A stretch of 64,000 nt of DNA from an uncultured candidate division WWE3 bacterium. Lineage in GTDB: Bacteria; Patescibacteriota; WWE3; UBA101185; UBA10185. The notes beneath the pieces are model-generated. The model was not told the DNA's origin. It saw only the letters and a list, made by a program, of their open reading frames with translations, and searched no databases. Numbering within the stretch: the first letter of the stretch is position 1; every line of letters begins with the position of its first letter. The stretch lies in NCBI GenBank assembly GCA_963765125.1, contig CAVXUZ010000005.1, positions 263,837 to 327,836 of the forward strand. Direction: 5' to 3'. A program made the translations under genes and the position numbers. Below are positions 10,984 through 61,964 of the stretch, one piece after another.

Positions 10984-11131
10984 AACTCTATTCTAACAAG
11001 TTTTACTATTTGTGAATATCCAACTGCTATAAAATCTCAAGATGGCATTGGCACTAAAGCCCGCTCCAAATATTTTAAACTCCAATACACGCCATACTAA
11101 TTAAAAATCTACTATAATATTAAGTATAAAC

Positions 11132-13777: not shown

Positions 13778-13853
13778 GCCAGTGTAGCTCAGTCGGTAGA
13801 GCAAGCCCTTCGTAAGGGTTAGGTCGACGGTTCGATTCCGTCCACTGGCTCCA
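13778..13853 (+). tRNA. tRNA-Thr (anticodon CGT), CCA encoded
   Basis: Hand-folded: acceptor GCCAGTG/CACTGGC, anticodon stem AGCCC/GGGTT, loop TTCGTAA, T-arm GACGG-TTCGATT-CCGTC. Length 76 nt. Confidence 0.85.
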
Positions 13854-13874
13854 TAAATTTGATAGAATTCTATT

Positions 13875-23524: not shown

Positions 23525-23560
23525 GTTCTTAATATATCACACTAACATTGTTTGATAAAT

Positions 23561-27816: not shown

Positions 27817-28072
27817 AATATATTCCAATGGCTTTTTGTTCAAAAACCTTACAACCTTGGCTAAATAAGGTTTCTACAACAAAAAAAACACATAAATTTT
27901 TTAACTAGAAAAATGCCTGGGCAGCGTACTTCTATAAGAACATATTTTTAAAAATAATACAATGAAATTTAGGTTAGAGTGTAATATTATGTATTTTTGC
28001 CACTACAACAACGTTATTAATAACAATAACGATTGCTATTAACCAATATTATACAAACTGCGTTAGTGTGAT

Positions 28073-30546: not shown

Positions 30547-31335
30547 TCACTTAAATAATACTATTACTTTATCATATCTTAAATCTATTTTCTGTATGTC
30601 TTTGTTTTCAACCTTTGCCTGCTTCATCAAAGCAGAAAGCGCTTTAACAGCCTCTAATTTGTTTTTCATCAAGCCTATAAGAACATTTTCTCCCCTGTCT
30701 AGATAAAAACTTACGTAATCAGGCTGAAAACTTACACTACTTACTTTGATATCCTCCGCGCTAAGCAGTTCGGTTAATTCCTGATACACGGGTACAATAT
30801 TTTTGTCGATAAATAATCCAACCGATATCTCTTTTTGGTAGTTAATTCTTGGCAATTCGTTATTTTCAGCGGATACGTAACCTAATACATACCCCTCCTT
30901 ATCAACCAGAAATTGATTTTCTTCATTTTTATAAACTATCGCAATCGGAACTCTCTCTTTTACAATGACTTTTATCGTTCGTGGAATCTTTTTTTCTAGC
31001 TCAATCGCATCTGCGCCTAAAAAATTGTCCTTTAATTTTTTCTCTAGTTCAAATTTTTTTAGAGTAAATATGTTTTTATCCATAATATTTGCTGACGCAA
31101 CTTCTCTAAGGTCAAGTGAACTTACAAATTTATCTGCACCGACTATATTAATATTTTTTACATTAAAAAATCCTGAATAGATAAATAGGTATGCTAGTCC
31201 AACTAATATAGCGAGCGCTGCAGTTATTTTTACAACCTTTAAAAAGTACTTTATGAATTTTCTTAAGAACACCTTTAGGTTAAAAGGTTCTTTTCTTCTA
31301 GTGACTTTTTGCCCTATAGGTTTTTTCGATTTCAT
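30547..31335 (-). CDS. ftsQ: FtsQ/DivIB-like cell division protein (bitopic, POTRA-type)
   Basis: Single N-terminal TM, about 260 aa, and synteny between murG and ftsA. Confidence 0.55.
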   Translation of the reverse strand: MKSKKPIGQKVTRRKEPFNLKVFLRKFIKYFLKVVKITAALAILVGLAYLFIYSGFFNVKNINIVGADKFVSSLDLREVASANIMDKNIFTLKKFELEKKLKDNFLGADAIELEKKIPRTIKVIVKERVPIAIVYKNEENQFLVDKEGYVLGYVSAENNELPRINYQKEISVGLFIDKNIVPVYQELTELLSAEDIKVSSVSFQPDYVSFYLDRGENVLIGLMKNKLEAVKALSALMKQAKVENKDIQKIDLRYDKVIVLFK

Positions 31336-32404
31336 CCACGATAATCTTTTTAGAATTTAATAGTTGTCTCTCTGTATTTTTTTGATATTTGGTTATGTTT
31401 AGAAGCATATTTTTAATCTCGGAGACTAAACGCGCAGAATTAAGTTCTGCCTCGTTTATAATGACTGCAAGACCTTCTTTAACCAACATTTCAGCATTTT
31501 TCTGCTGCTCTTTATGTGACACCCATGGAATTGGAATTAATACTGACGGTTTATTTAAATATAATAATTCTCCGCAAGTGTGTGCTCCAGCTCGTGCTAC
31601 TACTATTGAGGCTTTTGCATAAACCTCTCCTATTTCATCAGAATATATAAATTTTTTTGGAAAATATTTTCCATACGAGGAATCTTTAATCTTTAAATAT
31701 CTTTCTTCTAGTTTTTGGATATCGTTATAGATTGAATGGTCTCCGGTTTGGTGAATAGCATTACATATTTTTAATAATTCATCTAAACCATTAACAATTA
31801 CTTCGTTTATTATGTGAGAACCGGTTTTACCTGCAGTAATGTAAATGGTTGGAAGTGTCTCGTTAACAACAAAATTATTTGTTTTTTGTAATGAAATTTC
31901 CTCTCTCAACGGCAAACCCGAAAATACTACATTTTTATTTTTTAAAAACTCTCTCGATGACTCCCATGAAATTAAAACCTTATCTGCAACTTGCGCAATT
32001 AATTTGTTTGCATAACCCAAGACGGCTGTCTGCTCGTGCGTGATTGAAGGAATGCCTAATACTTTTGCAGCTAATACAGTAGGCACAGCTAGGTACCCTC
32101 CAAAAGACAGTACTATTTCTGGCTTTAACTTTATTAATAGGGCTAAAGCTTGAAAATATCCGTATGGGATTTTTAGCAATCTTATCGGATCGTAGGTTTT
32201 ATAGAATTTCCCAGCTTTTAAATCAAAGAATGGAATATTTAAATCTGTAATCTCCTTATACTCTAAAGTGTCATTCTTATCGCCCTTAACGCTGTGTTTA
32301 TGACCAAACCAATACAACTCAATTTCAGGGTAACGACTTTTTAACTCGTTTATTACTGGAAGTGCTGAGCTATGGTGACCACCTGTTATTACAACTTTTT
32401 TCAT
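31298..32404 (-). CDS. murG: undecaprenyldiphospho-muramoylpentapeptide beta-N-acetylglucosaminyltransferase MurG
   Basis: N-terminal ITGGHHSSALPV (GT28 G-loop), length and synteny. Confidence 0.85.
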   Translation of the reverse strand: MKKVVITGGHHSSALPVINELKSRYPEIELYWFGHKHSVKGDKNDTLEYKEITDLNIPFFDLKAGKFYKTYDPIRLLKIPYGYFQALALLIKLKPEIVLSFGGYLAVPTVLAAKVLGIPSITHEQTAVLGYANKLIAQVADKVLISWESSREFLKNKNVVFSGLPLREEISLQKTNNFVVNETLPTIYITAGKTGSHIINEVIVNGLDELLKICNAIHQTGDHSIYNDIQKLEERYLKIKDSSYGKYFPKKFIYSDEIGEVYAKASIVVARAGAHTCGELLYLNKPSVLIPIPWVSHKEQQKNAEMLVKEGLAVIINEAELNSARLVSEIKNMLLNITKYQKNTERQLLNSKKIIVDEIEKTYRAKSH

Positions 32405-32431
32405 GTACTTAGATTTTAGCAGAATTTAGTT

Positions 32432-35621: not shown

Positions 35622-36962
35622 CTACTTTATATTTTTAAGTCTCAGCTTGTGGTGATAACTCTGAGCAAACCTATGTGCCTCGTCTCGTAGAGTTATTAAA
35701 AGTTTAAGTCCAGAATTATTCTTTGGTAATTTCAAGCTAACAAACTCGTTGTCCTGAAGAAATATTATCGTTTCTTCTTTTTTTGCTAAACCTATTAGCG
35801 GTATGTCTATACTCTGCGCATTTAATTCATCTAGGACTGCAGAGACCTGCCCTTTGCCGCCGTCAATCACCAACAAGGCTGGAATTTCCCAACCCCCATC
35901 CTCATTACCATAACTATTTAATAGTCTGCGTCTAGTTACCTCTTTAAGCATAAAATAGTCGTCAGGTGTGTTTTTTGTTTTTATTTTAAATCTTCTATAC
36001 TCTTTCTTTTCCAAAAGGCCGTTAACAGCCACAACCATTGATCCTACAGCGTCAGCGCCAGAAATGTTTGAAATGTCGTAACATTCAATCCTCTTTGGCT
36101 TTTTAACTATCGATGGAATATTTTTTACAAGCTCATCGAGCGCCTGTTCTGCTAAATCTTCAACTAGATTTGGGTTGTCGATATATTGACTCGCGCTTTT
36201 ATAGTTTTCTCTAACATATTGTAATTTTCTCAAAATATCTCTGTATTCTGCAGCCAGTTCATAATTTTGCGATTTTGAAGCGGCTTGCATTTTTTTCTGA
36301 TATTCGTTTACGAGCTTCTCACCAAGTCCACTCAAGAATTTTGATAGCTGCTTGATCTCTTTTTTGTATAAATTAGGATCGTAATTATTTATGCACGGTG
36401 CTTGACATAAACCAATGTGCCCAAAAAGACACGACTTATTTAATTTCGAGTACTTATTGAACTTTTGAGTGGAACAATCTCTAAACGGAAATATTTTTCT
36501 CAAAAGCTTTAAAACAGTGCGAGTGTCGTTTGTACTTGGGTAAGGACCAAAAGTAATATCATTTGGTTTAAGATCGGAATTTCTTGCTGTAAATATTTTT
36601 GGTAAATCAACTTTTTTTTCGTTACGTGTCACAACTTCATTACGAATTACAATATATAGGTAAGATCTATCGTCCTTAAGCGCAATATTATATTTTGGAC
36701 GATATTTCTTAATTAATTCCGCCTCAAGAATTAAAGCGTCGATCTCTGAGTTGGTTTTTATCGTTTCAAGACTGCGAATTCGTGATACTAACGCCTGTGT
36801 CTTTGTTCCAAGCTTTATGTCGTCTTGAAAATAGGAAGATACTCGGATTTTTAGTAATTTGGCTTTTCCTACGTAAATAACGCTTTTTTGTGCATTTCGG
36901 AATATGTATACCCCTGGGCTTAAAGGTAATTCTTTTGCTTGCTGTCGCGCATCCTCTTTCAT
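35622..36962 (-). CDS. uvrC: excinuclease ABC subunit C (short form lacking the C-terminal HhH region)
   Basis: GIY-YIG N-terminus (GVYIFRN...VIYVGKAKLLKIRVSSYF), the UvrC Cys box CLFGHIGLCQAPC, and an RNaseH-like endonuclease region. Only 446 aa. Confidence 0.75.
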   Translation of the reverse strand: MKEDARQQAKELPLSPGVYIFRNAQKSVIYVGKAKLLKIRVSSYFQDDIKLGTKTQALVSRIRSLETIKTNSEIDALILEAELIKKYRPKYNIALKDDRSYLYIVIRNEVVTRNEKKVDLPKIFTARNSDLKPNDITFGPYPSTNDTRTVLKLLRKIFPFRDCSTQKFNKYSKLNKSCLFGHIGLCQAPCINNYDPNLYKKEIKQLSKFLSGLGEKLVNEYQKKMQAASKSQNYELAAEYRDILRKLQYVRENYKSASQYIDNPNLVEDLAEQALDELVKNIPSIVKKPKRIECYDISNISGADAVGSMVVAVNGLLEKKEYRRFKIKTKNTPDDYFMLKEVTRRRLLNSYGNEDGGWEIPALLVIDGGKGQVSAVLDELNAQSIDIPLIGLAKKEETIIFLQDNEFVSLKLPKNNSGLKLLITLRDEAHRFAQSYHHKLRLKNIK

Positions 36963-37009
36963 GCGGTAATTTTAACACTCAAACCTTGGTATTCGTGTAA
37001 AATAGTCAT

Positions 37010-38896
37010 ATGTTTAAAAAGTTACTTGTGTTTATTTTCATCTGCTTTATTTGGGTTGGTGATACATACGCGCTCGATGAGTTTAAGACTTCTTACTTTG
37101 TAACTTACGATAACAATGTCGACGGAGAGTCTACTGTTATACAAAAAATTCAATTAACTAATCTAAAAGATGACGTCGTCGCCACAAACTACTCAATCTC
37201 ACTAAAACAACTTCAAATTTACGATGTCGAGGCTACCGACGAAAAGGGCGCGATGGAAGTGGAACAAACTACTGCTGAAGACACAACCACAGTTATTGCA
37301 ACTTTTAATGAAAATATGGTTGGCAGAGGCAGGGTAAGCGAATTTACAATAAAATATAAAACAAAAAATATTGTTACTAAACTGGGAGAAATTTACACAA
37401 TAAAAATTCCAAAAGTTGCAGGGCTCATAAACGTCAGAGATTACAATGTAGAACTAATTATTCCTGATACCTTCGGACCACGTGTTTTTATAACACCTGA
37501 GCCAACAAAATTAAGAGAAGAGAGCAGTAAAACAGCGTATGTTTTCGAAAAAGAGCAGCTTGAAGATAGCGGTATTTCCGCAAGTTTTGGAAAATACCAA
37601 GTATTAAACTACAAGCTTATATATCAACTAGAAAATAAATATCCAATATCAACACTTCAAGAAATTGCTCTTCCTCCTGATATACAAGAAAGGCAGTATG
37701 TAAGCCACAAACAAATTACTCCTGAACCGAAAAGAATCTACACAGATGACGACGGTAACCTGGTTGCGCAGTACATTGTCAAACCAAATAATAATTTAGA
37801 AATTGAACTCGTCGGATCAGTAAGAATTCTTGGCAAACAGATTAATCCAGATCTCGGAGGAAGATTCACAGACATCGATACAAAACTTGTTAAAAAATAT
37901 ACAAAAGAAAAAATATTCTGGGAAACAAAATCACCTGAAATTCAAGCTGTAAAAAATAAATTATTCGAACCAGATTCAAATGTTACAAAAAATGCAAAAA
38001 ATATTTATAACTATGTTGTAGGAGAATTGAATTACGACCGCACAGTCATTGAAAAAGATTACGTTGAAAGATACGGCGCCACAAAAACACTCAGCCCAGA
38101 CACACCTGCCGCCTGTATGGAATTTACTGACCTTTTTATTGCCCTAGCAAGATCTATGGGAATACCAGCACGCGAGCTTAACGGCTATGCTATCAATGTT
38201 TATCAAAAGGTGTCATTACCGCTCTCTATCAAATTGAAATCGGGTGATCTGCTCCACTCTTGGCCCGAATTCTATGATCCAAACTTTGGCTGGGTTCCTG
38301 TCGATCCAACCTGGGGAAACACCTCAAAACTTGATTTCTTTTCAAAACTTGATAACAGTCATTTTGTTTTTGCAATCAAGGGTAACTCCTCCGAATATCC
38401 CCTACCAGCTGGTCTCTACAGAAAAGACAGCGATGCGCAGCTTGTGTCAGTCGAAGTATCACAAATTGATTCTGAAAATGATTTTCAACATTACGCTGCA
38501 TTTTATAAAAGATTAAATCTTAATCCTATAAAACTAATTATGGGTAAGGATAAATACTATGTAAAAAATCTTGGGGGTACCTATATTTATAATCTAAGTG
38601 GAAATACAATTTTACCTTACGAAGTTAAAACGATTTTCCTCGACAAGAACCTCGATGAAATTCAATATCAAGATGGAAACGGAAAAATTCATTCACAAAG
38701 TATTATTTTGTTGGATAAAAATCCTAAAACGTTTATTGTTAATCCCTTTTCTGTAATCTTTTCAACTCTCTTAGGGCTTCTGCTGTGTAGCTTGTCTTAT
38801 TATTTACTAATTCTGAAAGGCTACCTGAAAAAACTACCTCTCCTCCACCTGCGCCACCCTCAAGACCAAGATCAAAAACAAAGTCAGAATTCTTGA
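37010..38896 (+). CDS. secreted/anchored transglutaminase-like (papain-fold Cys-His-Asp) domain protein
   Basis: N-terminal signal, a TGase core with the Cys in TPAACMEFTDLFIALARSMGIPAR, and a C-terminal TM helix. Confidence 0.65.
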   Translation: MFKKLLVFIFICFIWVGDTYALDEFKTSYFVTYDNNVDGESTVIQKIQLTNLKDDVVATNYSISLKQLQIYDVEATDEKGAMEVEQTTAEDTTTVIATFNENMVGRGRVSEFTIKYKTKNIVTKLGEIYTIKIPKVAGLINVRDYNVELIIPDTFGPRVFITPEPTKLREESSKTAYVFEKEQLEDSGISASFGKYQVLNYKLIYQLENKYPISTLQEIALPPDIQERQYVSHKQITPEPKRIYTDDDGNLVAQYIVKPNNNLEIELVGSVRILGKQINPDLGGRFTDIDTKLVKKYTKEKIFWETKSPEIQAVKNKLFEPDSNVTKNAKNIYNYVVGELNYDRTVIEKDYVERYGATKTLSPDTPAACMEFTDLFIALARSMGIPARELNGYAINVYQKVSLPLSIKLKSGDLLHSWPEFYDPNFGWVPVDPTWGNTSKLDFFSKLDNSHFVFAIKGNSSEYPLPAGLYRKDSDAQLVSVEVSQIDSENDFQHYAAFYKRLNLNPIKLIMGKDKYYVKNLGGTYIYNLSGNTILPYEVKTIFLDKNLDEIQYQDGNGKIHSQSIILLDKNPKTFIVNPFSVIFSTLLGLLLCSLSYYLLILKGYLKKLPLLHLRHPQDQDQKQSQNS

Positions 38897-41747
38897 TTAT
38901 ATCAAGGTTGTGCTCAATAACCACGACAGTATTTCCTCTAGCAGTAAGTCTTTTTATTATGGTTATAAGCCTTTCTAGGTCAGCAAAATGTAAACCAGTA
39001 GTAGGCTCATCTAGAATATAAAGTGTTGAGCCTGTTGACCGTTTTGATAACTCTAGCGCAAGCTTTACTCTTTGTGCTTCTCCTCCAGAAAGTGTTGGAG
39101 CAGGTTGTCCTAGTCTAATGTAACTTAATCCTACATCATGAAGTGTTTGTATTTTTCTTCTAAGGATCGGGATATTTTCAAAAAACTGCAGTGCCTCGTC
39201 AACGGTCATATCTAAAACATCGCTAATATTTTTTCCTTTATATAATATTTCCAAAGCTTCTCTGTTATATCTTTTACCTCCACATACTTCACAGCTCACG
39301 TATACATCCGGCATGAACTGCATTTCTATCTTTATTTGCCCCTCCCCACCACAAGATTCACACCTACCGCCTTTAACATTAAAACTGAATCTACCCATTT
39401 TATAGCCGCGTATCTTTGCCTCCTCTGTTTTTGAAAATAGCTCTCTTATGTGGTCAAACGTTTTTGTATATGTTGCTGGATTTGATTTTGGAGTTCTCCC
39501 AATAGGACTTTGGTCTATCGCGATTAGTTTGTCGAGATTATTTGCTCCAATAATATCTACGTACGGTTCTGGTCTTTCATCATTTTTAAGGCCGAAATGC
39601 TGCCTCAAAGCGCGGTAAAACGTATCCATCACAAGTGTTGATTTTCCGCTTCCTGATACGCCAGTAACACAAATAAATTTACCGAGTGGAATCTCAAAAT
39701 CTATATTTTTAAGGTTTCTACCCGAAGCTCCAACAAGTTTTATACTTTTGCCATCCAACTTCTTTGATAACTTATGGTTCATCTCATCGTCTAGTAATTC
39801 ATCTATGCTTTGTTGAATTTTAATATCATTTTTTCCTACAACTTTCTTACCGGATAAATATTGTCCAGTTATAGAAATTTTATTTTTTATTATCTCTTCA
39901 GGCGTACCTTCGGCAATTACTTGACCGCCGTGCTCGCCAGCGCCAGGGCCAAAATCAAAAATATAATCACACTCCAACATAGTATCCATATCGTGTTCAA
40001 CAACTACGACTGTATTTCCTAAATCGCGCAAATATTTTAATGTTCTGATTAATTTTCCTTGGTCGCGCTGATGCAAACCAATTGAAGGCTCGTCTAAAAC
40101 GTACAAAACTCCAGAAAGACCAGAACCGATTTGTGAGGCAAGTCTAATTCTTTGGGCCTCTCCTCCTGATAGTTGTGACGATGATCTGGATAAAGTTAAA
40201 TAGCCTAGCCCGACATCCATCAAAAACTTTACTCTATAATTAATTTCTTTTAACAACGCGTCGGCTATCTGTTTCTCTCTAATAGTTAGTTTGTCTGGAA
40301 GTTCAATAAACCAGCTTTGTAGCACAGTTATAGGCAATTCTGATATTTCATAAATATTCTTTTTATCAATTACTACAGAGAGTGGTTCCCTTTTTAATCT
40401 CGTGCCTTTACACTCTGGGCATTCATCACGAACCATGTATTTCTCAATTTCACGCCTTATAAAATCAGATTTTGTTTCTTTGTATCTACGTTCAAGATTT
40501 GGAATAACCCCCTCAAATCTAGCTTTAAATTTGTGGTCATTTCCATCACCATCCCGATAACCAACTGTAAATCTTTGATTTTCTGGAGCACCGTAGAGAA
40601 TTATTTCTACTTCTTCTTTCTTTAAATCTTTTATTGGCGTGTTTACTGAAAAGTTATATTCCTTTGTTACTGCATCGACTACTTTTGAAATCCATGTTGT
40701 GTGTTCAAAGATTCTTGTCCAAGGAAATATTCCACCTTCTGAAATTGAGAGCTCAGGATTATAAATTGTGTTTTTATCAATTTCGAGCTGTGTACCTAAA
40801 CCGTCACACTTTAAACACGCTCCATGAGGCGAGTTAAATGAAAAAGTCCTCGGCTCTATGTCAGCAAGTGAGATGTTACAAACTGGGCATGCAAAATTTT
40901 CTGAAAAAAGATGATCTTCAACATTTTTAGGATTCTCCGAAAATTCAAATTCCTTATCTTTTACAATCGATAAGACTATGTTTCCGTTAGCCAGTCGCAG
41001 CGCTGTTTCAATATTCTGATATAGCGTACTACGAAACTCAGCGGCGTATTCTTTCACGCTCATTCTTTTTTTATTTACTACAGACCTTGTTATAAGAGCC
41101 TCAATCGTATGTTTATTTGTCTTTAGTAACGCAATATCTTCACCAACTCCCCTAATTACGTTGTCTATTCTTGCCCTTATGATTCCTTGTTTTTTGAGAT
41201 TATCAAATAGGCTTGAATATTCACCTTTTCGGTCTCTTATAATTGGCGCCAAAATTATAAATCTAACGCCTCTCTCACTAGAGTAGTCTTCGTCTTGGAT
41301 TAGTAATTTTTCTGTTTGTTCGGCGATCTCTTGCGCTGATTGTCTTTGAATCTCTCTTCCGCACTCAGGACAATGTGGATGACCAACTCGTGCAAAAAGT
41401 AATCTCATAAAATCGTAAATTTCTGTAATTGTACCAACCGTTGATCTTGGATTTCTTGAGGTTGTTTTTTGATCTATGGCAATTGCGGGTGATAATCCTT
41501 CTATCGTATCTACATCGGGTTTATCCATCACGCCTAAAAATTGACGAGCGTAAGCAGATAAACTTTCTACATAGCGTCTTTGCCCATCGGCGTATATTGT
41601 ATCCATCGCAAGTGAAGACTTACCAGATCCTGAAACACCGGTAAAAACGATAAATTTATTTTTTGGAATCTCAATATCAACATTTTTTAAATTATGCTGT
41701 CTTGCTCCTTTTACGATAATGTGGCTTAGCGCTGATTTATCAATCAT
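38739..41747 (-). CDS. uvrA: excinuclease ABC subunit A
   Basis: Two ABC ATPase modules (GVSGSGKSSLA and GVSGSGKSTL) and Zn-finger Cys pairs. 1002 aa. Confidence 0.95.
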   Translation of the reverse strand: MIDKSALSHIIVKGARQHNLKNVDIEIPKNKFIVFTGVSGSGKSSLAMDTIYADGQRRYVESLSAYARQFLGVMDKPDVDTIEGLSPAIAIDQKTTSRNPRSTVGTITEIYDFMRLLFARVGHPHCPECGREIQRQSAQEIAEQTEKLLIQDEDYSSERGVRFIILAPIIRDRKGEYSSLFDNLKKQGIIRARIDNVIRGVGEDIALLKTNKHTIEALITRSVVNKKRMSVKEYAAEFRSTLYQNIETALRLANGNIVLSIVKDKEFEFSENPKNVEDHLFSENFACPVCNISLADIEPRTFSFNSPHGACLKCDGLGTQLEIDKNTIYNPELSISEGGIFPWTRIFEHTTWISKVVDAVTKEYNFSVNTPIKDLKKEEVEIILYGAPENQRFTVGYRDGDGNDHKFKARFEGVIPNLERRYKETKSDFIRREIEKYMVRDECPECKGTRLKREPLSVVIDKKNIYEISELPITVLQSWFIELPDKLTIREKQIADALLKEINYRVKFLMDVGLGYLTLSRSSSQLSGGEAQRIRLASQIGSGLSGVLYVLDEPSIGLHQRDQGKLIRTLKYLRDLGNTVVVVEHDMDTMLECDYIFDFGPGAGEHGGQVIAEGTPEEIIKNKISITGQYLSGKKVVGKNDIKIQQSIDELLDDEMNHKLSKKLDGKSIKLVGASGRNLKNIDFEIPLGKFICVTGVSGSGKSTLVMDTFYRALRQHFGLKNDERPEPYVDIIGANNLDKLIAIDQSPIGRTPKSNPATYTKTFDHIRELFSKTEEAKIRGYKMGRFSFNVKGGRCESCGGEGQIKIEMQFMPDVYVSCEVCGGKRYNREALEILYKGKNISDVLDMTVDEALQFFENIPILRRKIQTLHDVGLSYIRLGQPAPTLSGGEAQRVKLALELSKRSTGSTLYILDEPTTGLHFADLERLITIIKRLTARGNTVVVIEHNLDIIKNSDFVFDLGLEGGAGGGEVVFSGSLSELVNNKTSYTAEALRELKRLQKRD

Positions 41748-41782
41748 CTTTCTTTTCTATATAAAAATAACAAAATACATAA

Positions 41783-41801
41783 TACGGGATTTATTCGGGT
41801 T
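41783..41801 (-). promoter_or_regulatory. candidate operator: GGGAT-N6-GGGTT direct repeat (TACGGGATTTATTCGGGTT) 36-54 nt upstream of the uvrA ATG
   Basis: 16/19 identity to a motif upstream of uvrB/lexA. Confidence 0.4.
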
Positions 41802-41827
41802 TGTGAAGTGTGAGAGTAATCTTAGCC

Positions 41828-44050
41828 CTAGTCTCTGTCCGCTTCGTCTTTTTTCTCTTCTGGGCATAGTCTTTCTGGTATTTTAGTCCCTTTCGCGAAA
41901 ATGTCGCCTCTTCCACACTTTTCATCATATTTCTCAAATATGCTGTCAGGTTTTTGCATTAGTTCATCCTGCTTATCCTTCAAAACTGCGGTCATAATCT
42001 TATTCCAGATTGGAGCTGCGCCGCTTAACCCTGATGCAAGATTACGATGCAATGGCGAGTTATCATTGTTTCCAACCCATACTCCAACAACATAACTCGG
42101 CGTGTAACCCATCGTAAAATTATCACGTATGTTGTCGGTCGTTCCCGTCTTTACAGCTACTTTTTTTCCATTAATTACCAAAGAATTGTGTGTACCAAAC
42201 GCAGGAACTCTTGCATTATTATCAGATAAAATATGCCAGATCATATACGCTGACTCCGGAGAAACAATTTTCTGCTCCTGATTGTTGTTGCGGTAAAGTT
42301 CAAAGCCTTTGTTGTCTTTAATAGAAATGAATGGTGTCGTAGGTTTATATTTACCTAGTCGTGCTAATGAAGCATAAAAGTTTGTATGGTCTAACAACCT
42401 TACTTCTTTTCCGCCCAGCGTAATTGACAAACCATAACTTCCATCAACTTTCCAATTTGATAATCCAAATTCCTGACCAAGTTTAACAATATTGTCTGGC
42501 CCAAGACGATGCGCCAACCTCACTGCAGGAATGTTATAAGAGTTTGCAAGTGCAGTTCTAAGTGTTACGTCACCGTGATCTTTTCCATCATAGTTTTTAG
42601 GTGTGTAAGGTGCTTGTCCTGAAAATTTGTACGTAATTGGTTCATCTTTTAAAATCGATGAGGTTGTAAAACCCTTCTCTAAAGCTAAAACGTAGGTTAG
42701 CGGTTTAATTGAAGATCCGGGCTGTCTGTATGCGCTCGCAACGTCAAAAGCGCCCCAACCCTCTTTGAAATAGTCAGTCGAGCCGACATAAGCAAGAATT
42801 TCTCTATTTACCGCGTCTAAGACAACGGCGGCACCGTTTGAGATTAGTAAACCCGAGCTAGCGGCAACTTCTTCTGTTACGATCTTCTGTGCCTCGTCTT
42901 GAAGATCCAAATCTAAAGTTGTGTGAATCGTCAAACCGCCAAGTTCAACAAATCTTTTTCCATATGTTTTTTCAAGCTCGCTCCTTACATACGCAACAAA
43001 ATGTGGAGCTCTTATATATTCTACCTGCGTTACAAAATTTAATTTTTTATTAAACGCTTCATCAGCCTCGTTAGTTGTTATGTAACCAAGCTGCTGCATT
43101 CTTTCTAATACATATTTTTGTCTAGATTTAGCTAACGACTGATCTCCTGAAAGAGGTGAATAGGTTGAGGGGGAAGACGGTAACCCGGCGAGAAGTGCTG
43201 ATTCTGCAAGGTCTAAATCCCAAACATTTTTTCCAAAGAATTTTTGTGAAGCTGACTGCACACCCCACGCAGTTCCACCATAAGAAATGTTGTTTAGATA
43301 CATTTCGAGAATCTCCTCTTTTGAATATTTTGCTTCTGCTAAAACTGAGAGAATTAGCTCCTTTATTTTTCTTGAAACTGTTCTTTCTGGTGATAACAAC
43401 ACATTTTTTATTAATTGTTGGGTGATTGTTGAACCGCCTTCTAACTTATCTTCGATAAATATTGATTTAGCAGCCCTGATCATACTAAGCGGATCAAACC
43501 CCGCATGTTTATAGAATTTGTCATCTTCGACAGCGATTGTTGCATTAACAAAATGTTTAGGAATTACCTCCAGTTTTACAGGCTCATATCGTTTATCAAT
43601 AAATATCTCAAATAAAAGTCTGCCCTTTCTATCAAGAATTTTACTTGGAGTAGGTACGTCTTTCGTCACGAGCAGCTCTGGGCTTGGTAATGTTTCTAAC
43701 CACAGTATTATTTGTAACGGGATGCCAATAAAAACTACGCAGCACACTACCCCTAGAAGAAATATTCTTACTTTTGAAAATGACGCACGCTTTATTCTTC
43801 TTACTGATGTTTCTGCATATTTTGGACGCCATTTTTGATTTTCTTTTTCTTCGTAAACTTCTGGTTTGTCTTTATTTTTAATTTTATTGTTAATAAATTC
43901 AGCAATTAAGCAATATTTTTGCTTTAGCTCAGACAGACCAGTATTACTAATAAGTTTTCTAAAATAATGGATAACGCTTTTAGTGTAGTGGATTAGAAAG
44001 TTACCAATTATTATAAATACCCTTTTTATAAGGTTTACTATGTTTTTCAC
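41828..44050 (-). CDS. class A penicillin-binding protein (GT51 transglycosylase + transpeptidase), PBP1A-like
   Basis: GT51 motifs EDDKFYKHAGFD and GGSTITQQL, and the transpeptidase SxxK region. Confidence 0.85.
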   Translation of the reverse strand: MKNIVNLIKRVFIIIGNFLIHYTKSVIHYFRKLISNTGLSELKQKYCLIAEFINNKIKNKDKPEVYEEKENQKWRPKYAETSVRRIKRASFSKVRIFLLGVVCCVVFIGIPLQIILWLETLPSPELLVTKDVPTPSKILDRKGRLLFEIFIDKRYEPVKLEVIPKHFVNATIAVEDDKFYKHAGFDPLSMIRAAKSIFIEDKLEGGSTITQQLIKNVLLSPERTVSRKIKELILSVLAEAKYSKEEILEMYLNNISYGGTAWGVQSASQKFFGKNVWDLDLAESALLAGLPSSPSTYSPLSGDQSLAKSRQKYVLERMQQLGYITTNEADEAFNKKLNFVTQVEYIRAPHFVAYVRSELEKTYGKRFVELGGLTIHTTLDLDLQDEAQKIVTEEVAASSGLLISNGAAVVLDAVNREILAYVGSTDYFKEGWGAFDVASAYRQPGSSIKPLTYVLALEKGFTTSSILKDEPITYKFSGQAPYTPKNYDGKDHGDVTLRTALANSYNIPAVRLAHRLGPDNIVKLGQEFGLSNWKVDGSYGLSITLGGKEVRLLDHTNFYASLARLGKYKPTTPFISIKDNKGFELYRNNNQEQKIVSPESAYMIWHILSDNNARVPAFGTHNSLVINGKKVAVKTGTTDNIRDNFTMGYTPSYVVGVWVGNNDNSPLHRNLASGLSGAAPIWNKIMTAVLKDKQDELMQKPDSIFEKYDEKCGRGDIFAKGTKIPERLCPEEKKDEADRD

Positions 44051-44123
44051 AAAATTCTTAAAAATAAATAAATGTGGCAGGTGATTTAGCTGATTCTAAC
44101 GCCAAAAAACGAGGTCGTCAAGA

Positions 44124-46208
44124 CTAATTCAAATTAGCTATTTTTTTAATTGCACGAATTCTATCTCGTAATTCAGCGGCTGTTTCGAAATTTAGCATCT
44201 CCGCCTCTTCCTTCATCGCCTGTTCAAGAGCTTTAATTTCTTTTTTCAACTCAATCGGGGGTAGAAGATAATAGTCTGTTTCGGACTTAAATTTGTGTTT
44301 TCCTTTGCCCGCTGTTAGATGCTCCTCAATTACTTCATCAATTAACTTTTCTCGAATTGGTTTAATAATTTGCTGTGGCGTAATATTGTGATCCTGATTG
44401 TATTTTAACTGTACCTCACGCCTTCTTGTCACCTCACCTATTGCCCTTTGCATACTTCCTGTTATAACGTCAGCGTACATTATAACTTCTCCATGTACGT
44501 GTCTTGATGCTCTTCCCATTGTTTGAATAAGCGCCGATTCGGAACGTAAAAATCCCTCCTTGTCTGCGTCTAAAATGGCGACAAGCGATACTTCTGGAAG
44601 ATCCAATCCTTCTCTGAGAAGGTTAATTCCCACTAATACATCATAGTTTCCTTTGCGTAGATCGTCTAAAATATTGGTCCTTTCGAGTGTGTCAATGTCA
44701 GAATGAAGATACGTAACTTTTAAACCTTGCTCAATCAGGTATGACGCAAGCTCCTCTGCCATTCTCTTTGTTAGTGTTGTTACCAAAACCCTTTGCTTTA
44801 GAGCAATTTTTTCGTTTATACGCTTTGTAAGGTCGCCTATTTGCCCATCTGTCGGCTTTATCTCAACCAATGGATCAACAATTCCGGTTGGTCTGAGAAG
44901 CTGTTCGACCACTTTACCTTCGGACATACTCAGTTCCCAATCAGTCGGTGTTGCACTTACAAAAATATCCTGATTAATTCGGCGCATAAACTCTTCAAAA
45001 TTTAACGGCCTATTATCTAGCGCTGAAGGCAGCCTAAAACCATAATCGATTAAAGTCTGCTTTCTTGTCCTATCGCCGTTGTACATTCCTCTTACTTGCG
45101 GAATTGTTATATGTGATTCGTCTATAACAAGAAGGTAGCCTTTCGGAAAAAACTCCATTAATGAATACGGTGCATCACCTGGTTGCCTACCATCAAAATA
45201 TCTCGAATAATTTTCGATTCCTTTACAATAACCAATCTCTTTAAGCATCTCTAAGTCATACTTCGTTCTTTGCTGCAGCCTGTATGCTTCAATCGCTTTT
45301 CCAACATCTTTCAATTCTTTTAATCTTTTTTCTAGGTCTTCTTCAATCTGCTTTATTGCATCTTCATGTTTTTCTTGCGCGGTAACATAGTGTTTTGCAG
45401 GAAATATTGAAATCGGTCCGTTGTTCTTGATACTTGAAATAATAAAATCTTGTTCTTTTTGGGTTAGTGATTTTGAGCTACTGCCTTGCCTTTGCTCAGG
45501 AAGTCCATCATAGCTTAGTGTATTACCTGTTAACGGATCGAAACAAGTCACATCAACAAGCACATCGTCCAAAAACTCCAATCTAAGTGCAAAATCGACG
45601 TATGCAGGGTAAATATCAACGACATCTCCTCGCACTCTATACGTTGCGCGTTTAAATTCAAACTCGGACCTTTCGTAATAGATTTGACTCAGCCTCTTCA
45701 TTAAATCGACTTTTCTCAACTTCATCCCTTTTCTGATTTCTATTGCAAATTTTGAATATTCAGCGGGTGAACCTAGATTGTATATACACGAAACAGACGA
45801 AACTACGATCACGTCTTTTCTCGTCATTAACGATGTTGTGGCAGAAAGTCTTAAACGATCAATTTGTTCGTTTATATCAGCATCTTTTTCTATATAAGTG
45901 TCCGTCGAAGGAAGATAACTTTCTGGTTGATAATAATCATAATAGCTGACAAAATACTCAACAGCGTTATCCGGAAAAAATTCTTTAAACTCTTGGTATA
46001 GTTGCGCAGCTAGAGTTTTGTTGTGTGAAAGTATAAGCGTAGGTTTATCAATATTTTTTATAACATTAGCAACTGTGAAGGTCTTACCGCTTCCAGTCAC
46101 TCCTAATAGTGTTTGGTGCTTTGCACCCTTTACAATATTTTCTGTTAGCTTTTCGATTGCTTGTGGTTGATCACCGGTAGGTGAAAAGTCCGCTTTCAGA
46201 TTAAACAT
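44124..46208 (-). CDS. uvrB: excinuclease ABC subunit B
   Basis: PTGDQPQAI, the helicase motif I GVTGSGKTF, and a C-terminal UvrB/UvrC interaction motif. Confidence 0.95.
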   Translation of the reverse strand: MFNLKADFSPTGDQPQAIEKLTENIVKGAKHQTLLGVTGSGKTFTVANVIKNIDKPTLILSHNKTLAAQLYQEFKEFFPDNAVEYFVSYYDYYQPESYLPSTDTYIEKDADINEQIDRLRLSATTSLMTRKDVIVVSSVSCIYNLGSPAEYSKFAIEIRKGMKLRKVDLMKRLSQIYYERSEFEFKRATYRVRGDVVDIYPAYVDFALRLEFLDDVLVDVTCFDPLTGNTLSYDGLPEQRQGSSSKSLTQKEQDFIISSIKNNGPISIFPAKHYVTAQEKHEDAIKQIEEDLEKRLKELKDVGKAIEAYRLQQRTKYDLEMLKEIGYCKGIENYSRYFDGRQPGDAPYSLMEFFPKGYLLVIDESHITIPQVRGMYNGDRTRKQTLIDYGFRLPSALDNRPLNFEEFMRRINQDIFVSATPTDWELSMSEGKVVEQLLRPTGIVDPLVEIKPTDGQIGDLTKRINEKIALKQRVLVTTLTKRMAEELASYLIEQGLKVTYLHSDIDTLERTNILDDLRKGNYDVLVGINLLREGLDLPEVSLVAILDADKEGFLRSESALIQTMGRASRHVHGEVIMYADVITGSMQRAIGEVTRRREVQLKYNQDHNITPQQIIKPIREKLIDEVIEEHLTAGKGKHKFKSETDYYLLPPIELKKEIKALEQAMKEEAEMLNFETAAELRDRIRAIKKIANLN

Positions 46209-46228
46209 TATTCGATTGTATCACGCGT

Positions 46229-46247
46229 TACGGGTTTTGTATGGGTT
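46229..46247 (-). promoter_or_regulatory. candidate operator: GGGTT-N6-GGGTT direct repeat (TACGGGTTTTGTATGGGTT) 21-39 nt upstream of the uvrB ATG, in the uvrB-lexA divergent region
   Basis: Read from the sequence. It overlaps the -35 region of a TGnTACAAT extended -10 box for uvrB. Confidence 0.4.
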
Positions 46248-46348
46248 ATTTAGAAATCGTAGCTATTGACATCTTCGGTTAATATTCGTTAACATATAAA
46301 TACCCAAAGAAAATACAAAGTAGCAAATTCTTTGGTAGAAAGAATAAA

Positions 46349-46978
46349 ATGAGCCCTATCACCTTATATAGAAAGCAAAGACAGATTTTAGATTATATTT
46401 CACAATATATACAACTTAACGGCACTTCTCCTACCCTACAAGAAATTGCTAACGCAATGGGCCTTTCTTCTCTTGCTACAGTCCATGAGCATCTTCAAAC
46501 ACTTCAAAAAAAAGGTGTAATTAAGAGATTTGAGGGCATGGTACGTGGAATTGAGATAGTTGATGACGCTTTTAGCACCGAACTTCACGCAATAGAACTC
46601 CCTGTAATAGGTTTCATTGCCGCAGGAGAGCCAATTGACGCCATTGAAAATCCAATTGATTCGGTCCTTGTATCAGCTGATTTGGTTTCAAAATCGAAAA
46701 GATGCTACGTTTTACAGGTCAGAGGCGACTCAATGATTTTAGAAGGTATTTTTGATGGTGATAATGTTGTAATACAGCAACAAGACACAGCTAATGATGG
46801 AGATATTATCGTGGCGTTACTAGACAACGGTTTTGCAACATTAAAAAAATTCTACAGAGAAAGCCCAACACAGGTGAGGCTGCAGCCAGCAAACGACTCT
46901 ATGGATCCAATCTACGTGCACCCAAAGGATTTAAAAATTCAAGGCAAGGTTTCAGGAATTATCAGACGATATAACTAG
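46349..46978 (+). CDS. lexA: LexA repressor (wHTH + S24 peptidase)
   Basis: The N-terminal wHTH segment LTxRQxQILDYISQYIQLNGTSPTLQEIANAMGL and the S24 catalytic region VRGDSMI...Lys. Confidence 0.85.
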   Translation: MSPITLYRKQRQILDYISQYIQLNGTSPTLQEIANAMGLSSLATVHEHLQTLQKKGVIKRFEGMVRGIEIVDDAFSTELHAIELPVIGFIAAGEPIDAIENPIDSVLVSADLVSKSKRCYVLQVRGDSMILEGIFDGDNVVIQQQDTANDGDIIVALLDNGFATLKKFYRESPTQVRLQPANDSMDPIYVHPKDLKIQGKVSGIIRRYN

Positions 46979-47742
46979 ACTTTATACTTAAAGAATATTT
47001 TTAGTCTTTCCAATATCTTTTCATGAATACTCTTTTTGTTTTCTTTGTAAATATGCCAAATCGGTGGTGCAACTGAAACAATTATTATCAATAGTACTAT
47101 TGGTAGTAAATATTTATCGACATTAGGAATTACGCTTCCCAGGTAGTACCCCGCCCAAGTCATTCCCCATGTCCATAAAGTACCACCAAGAAAATTATAA
47201 AAAGTAAACTTCTTATGATCCATCTTACCTATGCCCGCGACAATTGGAACAAAGGTACGTACCACAGGTATAAACCTCGCCAACGTAATAGCCTTTCCAC
47301 CATGCTTTTCATAAAATTCTTGCGCCTTAATAACGTTTTTCGGATTAAACAAAAATGATTCTTTTTTTCTAAATAGCTGACTTCCAACTCTTTTTCCAAA
47401 TTCATAACCTACATTGTCACCTACAACTGCAGCTATCCATGCGCCAATTACAAGTGGCCAGATTTTAAATAGAGAAAAAGCCGGTGATGATAAAAGCCCA
47501 GCAGTAAAAAGAAGGCTGTCGCCAGGTAAAAAGAAACCTACTAAAAGTCCGGATTCAGCGAAAACAACTCCCCAAACACCAAAAATACCTATCAACTCAA
47601 CAAAAGCCATAATATCGTGGCTAATAAAAGCGTTTATGATTTCTTGCATAAGATTGATGATATCATATCTTATGCTAATATTTAGACATGGATTTAACTG
47701 CCCTCTATCAACAATACTCCAAAGAAAAAGTAGATGACGCAT
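46975..47742 (-). CDS. DedA/SNARE-associated family membrane protein
   Basis: DedA core GVWGVVFAESGLLVGFFLPGDSLLFTAG. The real start is probably the internal MQEIINAF at about 47649. Confidence 0.7.
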   Translation of the reverse strand: MRHLLFLWSIVDRGQLNPCLNISIRYDIINLMQEIINAFISHDIMAFVELIGIFGVWGVVFAESGLLVGFFLPGDSLLFTAGLLSSPAFSLFKIWPLVIGAWIAAVVGDNVGYEFGKRVGSQLFRKKESFLFNPKNVIKAQEFYEKHGGKAITLARFIPVVRTFVPIVAGIGKMDHKKFTFYNFLGGTLWTWGMTWAGYYLGSVIPNVDKYLLPIVLLIIIVSVAPPIWHIYKENKKSIHEKILERLKIFFKYKV

Positions 47743-48377
47743 TAGAAATTTTAAATTATAAAAAGCCCATCGACCCTTTACCTAAAGACGAAGATGACAA
47801 TCTGCCTACTATCTATATATTTCGACATGGCCAATCTGAAGATAACCTTGAAATGAAATTTAGCGGGTGGAGAGACCCCGGCCTCACAGATAAAGGTCGA
47901 GAGGGTGCTGAGGCACTTGCTGAATTATTAAAAGATAAAAAGTTTGGAATGTTAATTTCGTCTACTCAAAAAAGAGCAATTGAAACTATGCAAATTGCAG
48001 TTTCAAAAAACGCATTAGCGAAGGATTTAGAAATAGTTAAAGACGAGCGACTCCGTGAAAGAAATTACGGAGTTCTTAACGGCTACAGCAAACTTGAACT
48101 ATTTTTATGGAATGAAAAACTTCTTGAGGCATTTCGCCGTGGTTTTGATATTATTCCGCCAGAAGGGGAAAGTTTAAAAATGGTGTGTGAAAGAGTTGCA
48201 AATTTTTGTGACGAAATTGTACCTCTAATTAAATCTAATGGGTTTGATGTTGCTATATCGTGCCACGGTAATTCAATAAGAGGATTTAGAAAATATTTTG
48301 AGAAGTTAAGCGACGATGAGGTTACAGAATTCGAAACACCACTAGCAAAAGATTATCTTGCATATACATTAAGATAA
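47688..48377 (+). CDS. histidine phosphatase superfamily (phosphoglycerate mutase-like) protein
   Basis: Catalytic RHG motif (IYIFRHGQSEDN) and the downstream His of branch 1. Confidence 0.65.
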   Translation: MDLTALYQQYSKEKVDDALEILNYKKPIDPLPKDEDDNLPTIYIFRHGQSEDNLEMKFSGWRDPGLTDKGREGAEALAELLKDKKFGMLISSTQKRAIETMQIAVSKNALAKDLEIVKDERLRERNYGVLNGYSKLELFLWNEKLLEAFRRGFDIIPPEGESLKMVCERVANFCDEIVPLIKSNGFDVAISCHGNSIRGFRKYFEKLSDDEVTEFETPLAKDYLAYTLR

Positions 48378-54531: not shown

Positions 54532-54933
54532 TTATCCGGTTAGCGATACTCCGGATTCTGATGCCTCGCCAATGTAAGAAGCGATCTTCTCCGGGAGCTC
54601 AGAGGGAACAAGATTATATTTCATCAGATAATCATCGGCGCCAAGCTCAACTGCTTTAGATATATTGTCGTCTGTTCCAAAGTTTGTAAGCATAATCACC
54701 GGTATTGAAACTGTCTCTTCTGCCTCTTTAAGCTCTTTTAAAATGTCTAAACCATTAATTCCTGGGAGAATAATATCAAGCAGAATAAGGTCAGGGTTTT
54801 CTTCTCTTATTCTTGATACAGCCATATTACCGTCTGCAACGTGAACAACGTTATGCCCCTTTAATTTCAACTCTGTTGCGCATAAATTAAAAAATGATTG
54901 GTCATCTTCAACAATAAGTATCTTTTTCGCCAT
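54532..54933 (-). CDS. single-domain response regulator (CheY-like receiver only)
   Basis: Receiver motifs KILIVEDD, LILLDIILPG and conserved Lys. No output domain. 133 aa. Confidence 0.8.
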   Translation of the reverse strand: MAKKILIVEDDQSFFNLCATELKLKGHNVVHVADGNMAVSRIREENPDLILLDIILPGINGLDILKELKEAEETVSIPVIMLTNFGTDDNISKAVELGADDYLMKYNLVPSELPEKIASYIGEASESGVSLTG

Positions 54934-61373: not shown

Positions 61374-61964
61374 TTACACGAGCTCCAAGCTCTTGATCTC
61401 TTCACCAACCATCTCACGCACAAAATTTTTTATCAACCTATTTGCCGAATTGATATCTTTATTTCTCATATTTTCTTGCCACAGATTTAGAAGTGAGGTT
61501 GGCGGCTGATAACCAAGTAGTTGCATAAATTTAATTTCAAAACGGTTTTCAATAACAATTATATTTTCCTTTGCTATATCTAGTTTTTCTAAAGTCTCGC
61601 TCACTAGTTGAAAGATCTCCTGCGCATGCTCATCTTCTTTAGTCATTTTTGATATTAGCTCCGCAATATAAAATCCATGTTTTACGCTATCGTAATTATT
61701 TTTAAGATTTTTGAATGGATTTATTAATACAACCTCGGAAAGGTACAGTTGCCCGCTTTCGTGCTCAGATGCTTTTATACTCACCGAATTAAAACTATCC
61801 ATACTGCCGCTGCGCCGTGAGCTTATTTTTCTCACTCCAGCCCCAATTACAGAAATTTTACCTCGATCTTGCGAGTACAAAGTATATATTTTATCGGAAT
61901 CTTTATATTTAATATTTTTTAAAACTATAGCAGTAGTATTAAAGCTGCGTTGAGAATTTCTCAT
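61374..61964 (-). CDS. recO: DNA repair protein RecO
   Basis: The N-terminal OB-fold pattern (TAIVLKNIKYKDSDKIYTLYSQDRGK) and a length of about 196 aa. Confidence 0.7.
   Translation of the reverse strand: MRNSQRSFNTTAIVLKNIKYKDSDKIYTLYSQDRGKISVIGAGVRKISSRRSGSMDSFNSVSIKASEHESGQLYLSEVVLINPFKNLKNNYDSVKHGFYIAELISKMTKEDEHAQEIFQLVSETLEKLDIAKENIIVIENRFEIKFMQLLGYQPPTSLLNLWQENMRNKDINSANRLIKNFVREMVGEEIKSLELV

Follow-up and report, generated by a model that had tools for sequence, protein, structure and literature searches.

LexA boxes built as direct repeats have already been reported in bacteria. The LexA box of the Alphaproteobacteria is the direct repeat GTTC-N7-GTTC (PMC8565304), and the LexA direct repeat of the Balneolaeota, TTACACATATTTTWTACATA, evolved independently and has been validated by EMSA (PMC7739468). 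The latter paper also cites Sanchez-Osuna, Barbe & Erill 2017 (Environ Microbiol 19:3465) among reports of a LexA that recognizes a direct repeat. The Patescibacteria motif of that study, as far as the citing paper shows, comes from the superphylum of the case described below and belongs to the same regulator. However, NCBI taxonomy places WWE3 outside its 'Patescibacteria group', so WWE3 may lie outside the 2017 study.

We analyzed a 64-kb stretch of DNA (the window) from a candidate division WWE3 bacterium (Patescibacteria/CPR), in which lexA is divergent from uvrB (Table 1). The gene order uvrA-pbp1A-uvrB<>lexA is kept in ~40 related genomes. This synteny block contains no second conserved regulator gene, and recA, the gene most telling for an SOS regulon, is absent from the window and from every related locus collected. 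A first-pass annotation had noticed two similar 19-mers, TACGGGATTTATTCGGGTT (41783-41801) and TACGGGTTTTGTATGGGTT (46229-46247), and proposed them as a candidate SOS-type operator, with control by a different regulator as the alternative. Re-reading of the sequence placed both at these coordinates, each upstream of a minus-strand gene, at 36-54 nt from the uvrA and 21-39 nt from the uvrB start codon, with an 11-bp spacing between pentamers, as described. The two 19-mers are identical at 15 of 19 positions (mismatches at 7, 11, 13, and 14), rather than the 16 that had been counted. Exactly two matches to GGGWT-N6-GGGWT occur in the window, against 0.26 expected, and a search with the 19-mer consensus allowing up to three mismatches returned the uvrA and uvrB sites plus one weak match (0.21 expected). 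The lexA promoter contains two further copies of the direct repeat, lexA operators 1 and 2 (Op1 and Op2), which had been missed in the first pass.

Table 1. Genes, promoters, and candidate operators of the uvrA-uvrB-lexA region (window coordinates).
Feature	Position	Strand	Description
uvrA	38739-41747	minus	1002 aa; NCBIfam NF001503, 1379 bits
uvrA promoter	41779-41807	minus	-35 TTCACA (41807-41802), 17-nt spacer, -10 TATTAT (41784-41779); scan 10/12 matches
uvrA operator (candidate) AACCCGAATAAATCCCGTATT	41781-41801	minus	half-sites CCGAA, CCGTA, 11 bp apart; PWM 20.9 bits, top match in the window
uvrB	44124-46208	minus	694 aa; NCBIfam NF003673, 997 bits
uvrB extended -10 TGATACAAT	46215-46223	minus	read from sequence
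uvrB operator (candidate) AACCCATACAAAACCCGTAAC	46227-46247	minus	half-sites CCATA, CCGTA, 11 bp apart; PWM 18.2 bits
lexA promoter	46266-46295	plus	-35 TTGACA (46266-46271), 18-nt spacer, -10 TAACAT (46290-46295); scan 10/12 matches
lexA operator 1 (Op1, candidate)	46272-46292	minus	TTCGG (46274-46278) and TTCGT (46285-46289); PWM 15.4 bits
lexA operator 2 (Op2, candidate) TACCCAAAGAAAATACAAAGT	46301-46321	plus	direct repeat just downstream of -10 (TSS/5'UTR region); PWM 20.2 bits
lexA	46349-46978	plus, divergent from uvrB	209 aa; NCBIfam TIGR00498, 191 bits

The specificity of the motif was assessed with a position weight matrix (PWM) built from 71 sites, all of them from other genomes. Read in gene direction, the core is CC(G/A)(A/T)A-N6-CC(G/A)(A/T)A, or T(T/A)(C/T)GG-N6-T(T/A)(C/T)GG on the other strand, although the apparent invariance of CC..A is inflated by the regular expressions used to collect sites, which fix some positions by construction. 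The 11-bp period of the direct repeat, present in all four window sites as well as in the 71 sites from relatives, stands as first described; the GGGTT pentamers taken as its unit do not, the conserved core being T-W-Y-G-G, offset from GGGTT. Exactly four PWM matches in the window exceed 15 bits, namely the four candidate operators at the uvrA, uvrB, and lexA promoters, and the next best reaches 9.9 bits. Considering that Markov simulations predict 0.295 matches of at least 15 bits per 64 kb, the motif is not similarly frequent elsewhere. In 510 kb of related loci, matches of at least 13 bits likewise fall almost all at lexA, uvrA, and uvrB promoters.

In ~40 genomes whose LexA proteins are 54-81% identical, the promoters of uvrA, uvrB, and lexA keep the element in a fixed place, while the flanks are not conserved. 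This conservation across orthologous promoters, the PWM specificity, and the presence of the motif in lexA's own promoter all support the earlier proposal of a direct-repeat, SOS-type operator. From these sequence comparisons, we consider that the motif, a head-to-tail direct repeat for which LexA is the likely binder, probably serves this WWE3/Patescibacteria lineage as its LexA (SOS) operator. The window's LexA is intact: helix 3 of its wHTH reads SSLATVHEHLQ, an Ala-Gly cleavage site lies in IAAGEP, and the Ser/Lys dyad is present in GDSM and TLKKF. The protein aligns with Thermotoga maritima LexA (3k2z; E 9e-32) and E. coli LexA.

A direct repeat lies between the -35 and -10 elements of lexA in every relative, also where lexA is not beside uvrB. 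The repeat further occurs at lexA of a 66% GC MAG (L042), in which the gene is divergent from trpC. Such presence at lexA whatever the neighbours is the classical signature of LexA autoregulation. The arrangement TTGACA-nn-TTCGG-N6-TTCGGTA-nTAT is kept in the lexA promoters of ~35 relatives. Op1, the repeat that fills this spacer, is oriented relative to its gene opposite to the uvrA and uvrB sites. The uniform orientation relative to the gene noted in the first pass therefore holds for uvrA and uvrB of the window, but Op1 is inverted, as is the uvrB site of one relative (L023). Op2 is conserved as ATACCAAAGAAAATACAAAG in ~20 relatives.

At uvrA, the repeat fills the 17-bp spacer of the promoter; both hexamers are conserved in relatives, and 15 uvrA promoters keep TTCACA-AACCCGAAnAAATACCG-TAnAAT. 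At uvrB, the repeat spans about -39 to -22, directly upstream of the extended -10, and ~20 relatives keep wwACCmAAnmAAAACCCAAA at 4-6 nt upstream of TGnTAnAAT. The end of TGATACAAT lies 6 nt from the uvrB ATG with no SD sequence, as had been reported, and relatives conserve a TGnTAnAAT-N6-8-ATG/GTG geometry. The leaderless geometry suggested for uvrB is real; however, it is found genome-wide and is not specific to this gene.

The overlap of the repeat with core promoter elements at uvrA, lexA, and uvrB is consistent with repression. The period of 11 bp places the two half-sites on one face of the helix, and a LexA dimer would bind each repeat and block RNA polymerase. Occlusion would affect the sequence between -35 and -10 at uvrA and, through Op1, at lexA, the region upstream of the extended -10 at uvrB, and the transcription start region at lexA Op2. 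Upon DNA damage, RecA-stimulated self-cleavage of LexA at Ala-Gly would then derepress lexA, uvrA, and uvrB. Where the spacer between lexA and uvrB is short (L009, L019, L020, L025, L027, and L029), the two promoters have only one site between them. Since this common site stands ~10 bp farther away from the -10 box of uvrB, repression of uvrB is less certain there.

Compared with the alphaproteobacterial box, the WWE3 element is likewise head-to-tail, repeats every 11 bp, and contains TTC in its half-site, both occur in lexA and DNA-repair promoters, and the alphaproteobacterial LexA is also able to self-cleave. However, the WWE3 half-site T(T/A)(C/T)GG lacks a conserved G before TTC, its invariant part being the following GG, and GTTC-N7-GTTC has no match in the 64-kb window. 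There is no sign of common descent of the WWE3 and alphaproteobacterial LexA proteins. WWE3 LexA is closest by sequence to Gram-positive-type LexA (42-48% identity; helix 3 TVHxHL). The Gram-positive Cheo box, (C)GAAC-N4-GTTC(G), resembles the WWE3 element in the protein family involved, whose recognition helices are closely similar (STVHGHL versus ATVHEHL), in having half-sites with TTCG, and in its autoregulatory placement in lexA promoters. It differs in being an inverted repeat; the half-sites of the WWE3 element run head to tail and are more widely spaced. As the first-pass annotation had stated for the uvrB-lexA region, neither GAAC-N4-GTTC nor CTGT-N8-ACAG occurs; both have zero matches anywhere in the window. 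In loci L033-L044, the part of the Patescibacteria/WWE3-type set covered by the search, none has a Cheo box upstream of lexA, while the Firmicutes and Actinobacteria/Coriobacteriia lexA promoters from the same search have Cheo boxes and no direct repeat. The Balneolaeota motif shares with the WWE3 element its nature as a direct-repeat LexA box, but half-site sequence and phylum are unrelated. The WWE3 case would be a further example of direct-repeat LexA boxes and no new kind of regulatory system.

Half-site sequences could also be compared with the LexA recognition helix. Helix 3 of the form SLATVHEH(L/I) occurs with TTCGG, STVCGHL (L041) with TTCGTG, ATVAQHI of Saccharibacteria with GTTCGT-N5-GTTCGT, and STVH(G/S)HL of Firmicutes and Actinobacteria with the Cheo box. 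Three Saccharibacteria loci (L043, L044, and L046) have a literal GTTC-N7-GTTC between the lexA -35 and -10, and two loci labelled Microgenomates (L039 and L040) have the WWE3-type LexA helix and promoter architecture. These sequence pairings are suggestive of a motif that changes together with the recognition helix across lineages, with few independent events.

A different factor, such as an OmpR/PhoB-type winged-helix response regulator, might instead control lexA, uvrA, and uvrB, with LexA binding elsewhere or being one of the targets. Sites of the OmpR/PhoB family are typically head-to-tail repeats with a 10-11 bp period. The WWE3 repeat shares this arrangement at 11 bp and, like OmpR/PhoB boxes, overlaps the -35 region; moreover, the link between LexA and the site is sequence-based and recA lies outside the examined sequence. 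However, OmpR/PhoB boxes usually serve activation and are centred at -35 or further upstream, and the WWE3 loci have no linked cognate regulator. The window encodes a single response regulator (54532-54933), a receiver-only protein with no DNA-binding domain, and the conserved synteny block offers no other regulator gene. Instead, the motif tracks lexA, being tied to its promoter in every genome regardless of neighbours, and half-site changes follow changes in LexA helix 3. Neither these promoters nor the rest of the window contain another candidate LexA box. Control by a different factor is therefore unlikely.

The repeat could also be an element of promoter architecture, i.e., a spacer, an UP-like element, or a sequence recognized by an alternative sigma factor, rather than a repressor operator. 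Indeed, it always overlaps the core promoter, lying either between -35 and -10 or, in extended -10 promoters, over the -35 region. However, relative to transcription it runs one way at uvrA and uvrB and the other way at lexA Op1, and it is inverted at uvrB of L023. In addition, the lexA promoter has another copy downstream of its -10 box, and ~12 other TGnTAnAAT promoters in the window, including that of uvrC, are without the repeat. In L019, a TACCGAA-type site at uvrA stands in place of the ACCCGAA-type. Such interchangeable variants, together with the single sites common to two promoters and the inversion in L023, point to a separate DNA-binding protein and not to a polymerase element, making this explanation very improbable. 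Chance resemblance of two A/T-rich intergenic regions was refuted by the comparative data and has a negligible probability, for although only two copies of the loose GGGWT-N6-GGGWT pattern occur in the window and two or more matches arose in 4 of 100 shuffles as well, orthologous positions in ~40 genomes conserve the motif and an independent PWM recovers exactly both sites plus the two lexA sites.

As a LexA operator, the consensus with its four mapped sites would give a concrete predicted operator for the SOS repressor in a lineage that is uncultured and genome-reduced, and a Gram-positive-like LexA recognition helix would appear to be re-usable on head-to-tail half-sites. Both could serve CPR regulon reconstruction and studies of LexA motif evolution. 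Should the 2017 study have missed either this consensus or WWE3, a more far-reaching interpretation is conceivable, though we consider it rather unlikely: helix 3 SLATVHEHL and T(T/A)(C/T)GG-N6-T(T/A)(C/T)GG could define a distinct LexA specificity class with a pared-down regulon. Such a class would be common to WWE3, Microgenomates-like lineages, and at least one 66% GC MAG not labelled CPR (L042). Its SOS regulon would comprise lexA, uvrA, and uvrB, without uvrC, polX, or ribonucleotide reductase. The promoters are for the most part leaderless, and one operator would serve two divergent promoters in some genomes.

Regarding the extent of the regulon, uvrC and polX had been named among the genes whose upstream regions should be checked for the motif, but the PWM scan found a site at neither, nor at the class II ribonucleotide reductase gene in the window. 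The genes found so far suggest that the damage response in this lineage controls excision repair rather than mutagenic polymerases. Upstream of recA, a single metagenome scan found a candidate copy of the motif on one high-GC contig (L077), as ACCGAA-N6-CCGAA located 24 nt before the ATG.

We searched the LexA of the window against species-representative genomes and obtained 76 loci (L-numbers denote loci from other genomes or contigs, most of them found by this search). The nearest LexA relatives (54-81% identity) came from MAGs of candidate division WWE3 and related Patescibacteria/CPR, and since the order uvrA-pbp1A-uvrB<>lexA is kept in most of the closest-relative genomes, direct phylogenetic footprinting was possible. 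The two 19-mers proposed in the first-pass annotation as a candidate SOS-type operator lie upstream of uvrA and uvrB where it had placed them, but agree at 15 of 19 positions rather than at the 16 it had counted. Footprinting across the related genomes showed that the repeat is kept at the orthologous uvrA, uvrB, and lexA promoters, with a common core, CC(G/A)(A/T)A-N6-CC(G/A)(A/T)A, of 11-bp period. The GGGTT pentamers originally described are these same half-sites on the other strand, but they are offset from the conserved core by three bases. In ~20 relatives, wwACC(A/C)AAn(A/C)AAAACCCAAA stands before uvrB and is separated by 4-6 nt from the extended -10 box TGnTAnAAT downstream of it. The uvrA promoter reads TTCACA-AACCCGAAnAAATACCG-TAnAAT in 15 genomes and, therefore, the repeat itself is the 17-bp spacer. 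In ~35 genomes the lexA promoter is TTGACA-nn-TTCGG-N6-TTCGGTA-nTAT, and in relatives a second lexA repeat (ATACCAAAGAAAATACAAAG), in the opposite orientation, directly follows the -10 box. The corresponding repeats in the window, Op1 and Op2, are two copies beyond those first reported.

Genes, promoters, and repeat copies in the window
Feature	Position	Strand	Remarks
uvrA	38739-41747	minus	NCBIfam
PBP1A gene (pbp1A)	41828-44050	minus	NCBIfam
uvrB	44124-46208	minus	NCBIfam
lexA	46349-46978	plus	divergent from uvrB; NCBIfam
uvrC	35622-36962		nearby; NCBIfam
uvrA promoter, TTCACA-17-TATTAT	41807-41779		promoter scan
uvrB extended -10, TGATACAAT	46215-46223		ends 6 nt before ATG
lexA promoter, TTGACA-18-TAACAT	46266-46295		promoter scan
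lexA Op1	46272-46292		
lexA Op2	46301-46321		
polX (PolX-PHP)	5389-7155	minus	
Class II ribonucleotide reductase	25324-27843	minus	cobalamin adenosyltransferase adjoining
recO	61374-61964	minus	
TGnTAnAAT-N5-8-ATG/GTG promoter	36963-36990		uvrC; no SD
TGnTAnAAT-N5-8-ATG/GTG promoter	10984-11010		no SD
TGnTAnAAT-N5-8-ATG/GTG promoter	13850-13874		no SD
TGnTAnAAT-N5-8-ATG/GTG promoter	23525-23550		no SD
TGnTAnAAT-N5-8-ATG/GTG promoter	32405-32430		no SD
TGnTAnAAT-N5-8-ATG/GTG promoter	47660-47687		no SD

GGGWT-N6-GGGWT matched twice in the 64 kb (0.26 matches expected), and a search with the degenerate 19-mer that tolerated three mismatches or fewer gave only one further, weak match in the window. 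Motif enrichment was also assessed with a weight matrix (PWM) built from 71 sites, all from other genomes and with the window's own sites left out; since these were gathered by a regular expression that fixes part of the core, the invariance of the core is partly by construction. Only four matches in the window exceeded 15 bits, i.e., the sites at the uvrA (20.9), lexA (Op2, 20.2; Op1, 15.4), and uvrB (18.2) promoters, while the next best reached 9.9 bits and fell within coding sequence. By first-order Markov simulation, 0.295 matches scoring 15 bits or more would be expected in 64 kb. When related loci totalling 510 kb were scanned, matches of 13 bits or more fell, with few exceptions, at lexA, uvrA, or uvrB promoters; some of these were at a locus end that truncates uvrA. 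Three in-phase half-sites (CCAAA-N6-CCGAA-N6-CCAAA; 24053-24079, plus strand) lie inside an FtsW/RodA-family gene (23561-24610, minus strand); they score below 9.5 bits because their flanks are poor, and are probably due to chance. Viral contigs yielded 14 matches to TTGACA-NN-TTCGG-N6-TTCGG, six of them one repeated sequence; these were without a -10 box or LexA, in sequence that looks coding or unrelated, and are consistent with chance.

The arrangement of the sites fits a repeat that would be bound by a separate DNA-binding protein occluding RNA polymerase, and does not fit a recognition element of the polymerase itself, since its orientation relative to transcription varies. The first-pass annotation had noted one orientation relative to the gene, which is correct for uvrA and uvrB in the window; however, lexA Op1 is inverted relative to these two sites (Op2 is not), and so is the uvrB-proximal site of relative L023. 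A polymerase element is also at odds with the interchangeability of sequence variants (a TACCGAA-type site stands at uvrA in L019), with the single site found between both divergent promoters where the lexA-uvrB spacer is short (L009, L019, L020, L025, L027, and L029), and with the absence of the repeat from about a dozen further promoters of the TGnTAnAAT type in the window, uvrC's included. A hidden palindrome was rejected since no half-site shows self-complementarity; opposed half-sites occur only as the inner pair of Op1 and Op2, ~18 bp apart. RDRM/DdrO-type and PafBC-type motifs, which the sequence does not resemble, were rejected too.

Circumstantial but convergent evidence points to LexA as the protein that would bind the repeat, and the initial reading of a direct-repeat SOS-type operator is supported by conservation, specificity, and the copies in the lexA promoter. 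Indeed, every relative has the repeat in the promoter of lexA itself, irrespective of the adjoining gene. In a 66% GC MAG (L042), the lexA gene is divergent from trpC and has four TTCGG half-sites, arranged as two direct repeats, in its upstream region (6880-6940). This MAG is labelled Gemmatimonadales and its LexA helix, SLATVHEHL, is of the WWE3 type; the motif and LexA type may also occur outside CPR, or misbinning or horizontal transfer may account for the contig. WWE3-type lexA, uvrA, and uvrB promoters contained none of the other LexA box types, the Cheo-box search upstream of lexA covering L033-L044, part of the WWE3-type set. Across the whole window there were 0 matches to the Cheo box or CTGT-N8-ACAG, whose absence the first-pass annotation had noted for the lexA-uvrB divergent region, and 0 to GTTC-N7-GTTC. 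All Firmicutes and Coriobacteriia lexA loci from the LexA search had Cheo boxes and none had the direct repeat, which serves the argument from autoregulation as a positive control. The window's LexA is intact, with a wHTH domain, an Ala-Gly site, and a Ser/Lys dyad.

Circumstantially, half-site and LexA recognition helix also appear to change together across lineages: SLATVHEH(L/I) accompanies TTCGG (WWE3, Microgenomates-like loci, and L042), STVCGHL accompanies TTCGTG (L041), ATVAQHI accompanies GTTCGT-N5-GTTCGT, i.e., GTTC-N7-GTTC (Saccharibacteria), and STVH(G/S)HL accompanies the Cheo box. The lexA promoters of three Saccharibacteria loci (L043, 6920-6960; L044; L046) read TTGACA-C-GTTCGT-N5-GTTCGT-TATTAT, the spacer repeat being of the alphaproteobacterial type. 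L047 comes from an uncultured bacterium with a LexA of 44% identity; TTGACA-ACTGTATTTTTATACAGT-ATAAT occurs ~60 nt upstream of its lexA, and the spacer site is the E. coli-type CTGT-N8-ACAG palindrome. Here the type of box changes freely while its placement in the promoter stays. Many MAGs with WWE3-like LexA, UvrB, and synteny (among L001-L036) are titled 'uncultured Candidatus Saccharibacteria', and L033 and L041 'Gammaproteobacteria'; the labels given to these TPA assemblies do not look like a reliable guide to taxonomy.

LexA proteins with direct-repeat boxes are known to have a flexible tether between their DNA-binding domains and the dimerisation domain, and it is therefore plausible that a LexA dimer could occupy a direct repeat, contacting both head-to-tail half-sites from one side of the helix. 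Bound LexA would sit over the -35/-10 spacer in the case of uvrA and lexA Op1, over about -39 to -22 in the case of uvrB, whose extended -10 promoter has no -35 box, and over the start region in the case of lexA Op2; RecA-stimulated LexA self-cleavage would relieve repression. The motif is well documented and is best read as a direct-repeat LexA operator, a kind already known. The GTTC-N7-GTTC box of Alphaproteobacteria appears in a list in PMC8565304, and PMC7739468 describes an EMSA-validated direct-repeat box in Balneolaeota and cites a 2017 Patescibacteria study (Sanchez-Osuna, Barbe & Erill) among cases of LexA evolving direct-repeat recognition. A direct-repeat LexA operator has very probably been described already for this superphylum; WWE3 is placed outside the 'Patescibacteria group' in NCBI taxonomy. 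The first-pass reading needs extending on three points: the operators at lexA, the correction of the core, and variable orientation.

Since the PWM scan of the window found no operator at uvrC, polX, or the class II ribonucleotide reductase gene (nor at recO), the visible regulon in the window is predicted to comprise lexA, uvrA, and uvrB only. A 47-bp region (36963-37009) separates uvrC from a divergent transglutaminase-like gene (37010-38896), and the extended -10 promoters of the two point away from each other; since this region is without a LexA-type repeat, uvrC, unlike uvrA and uvrB, is apparently not a member of the regulon. Between uvrB and uvrA, pbp1A has its own promoter-like TTGACG-17-TAGAAT (44093-44121, minus strand), and its expression solely by co-transcription with uvrB was therefore rejected. 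This promoter has no operator, and no terminator was found after uvrB; the uvrA-pbp1A-uvrB synteny is clade-wide, for no obvious functional reason. A tblastn search with an approximate E. coli RecA query found no recA in the window or the 76 lexA loci. A metagenome scan for the operator together with the RecA Walker A motif gave one match, in a high-GC contig (L077), where TTCGGTGCCGAACCGAAGATTTCCCGAA (5010-5050, minus strand), comprising a TTCGG/CCGAA palindrome and a CCGAA-N6-CCGAA direct repeat, lies 24 nt before the recA ATG. This match, on a single high-GC contig, is weakly suggestive of an operator before recA.

The leaderless geometry claimed for uvrB, i.e., a -10 box with the start codon shortly after it and no SD sequence, was borne out in the window and is kept in relatives, where TGnTAnAAT is followed after 6-8 nt by ATG/GTG. 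In the window, the same geometry was found at many other genes, including uvrC and those at 9355-10983, 13875-14603, 22175-23524, 31298-32404, and 47688-48377. Since many genes share it and SD-like sequences are rare in the window, leaderless initiation looks like a genome-wide habit that is not specific to SOS genes. The uvrA leader is ~30 nt in the window and of the leaderless type in many relatives.
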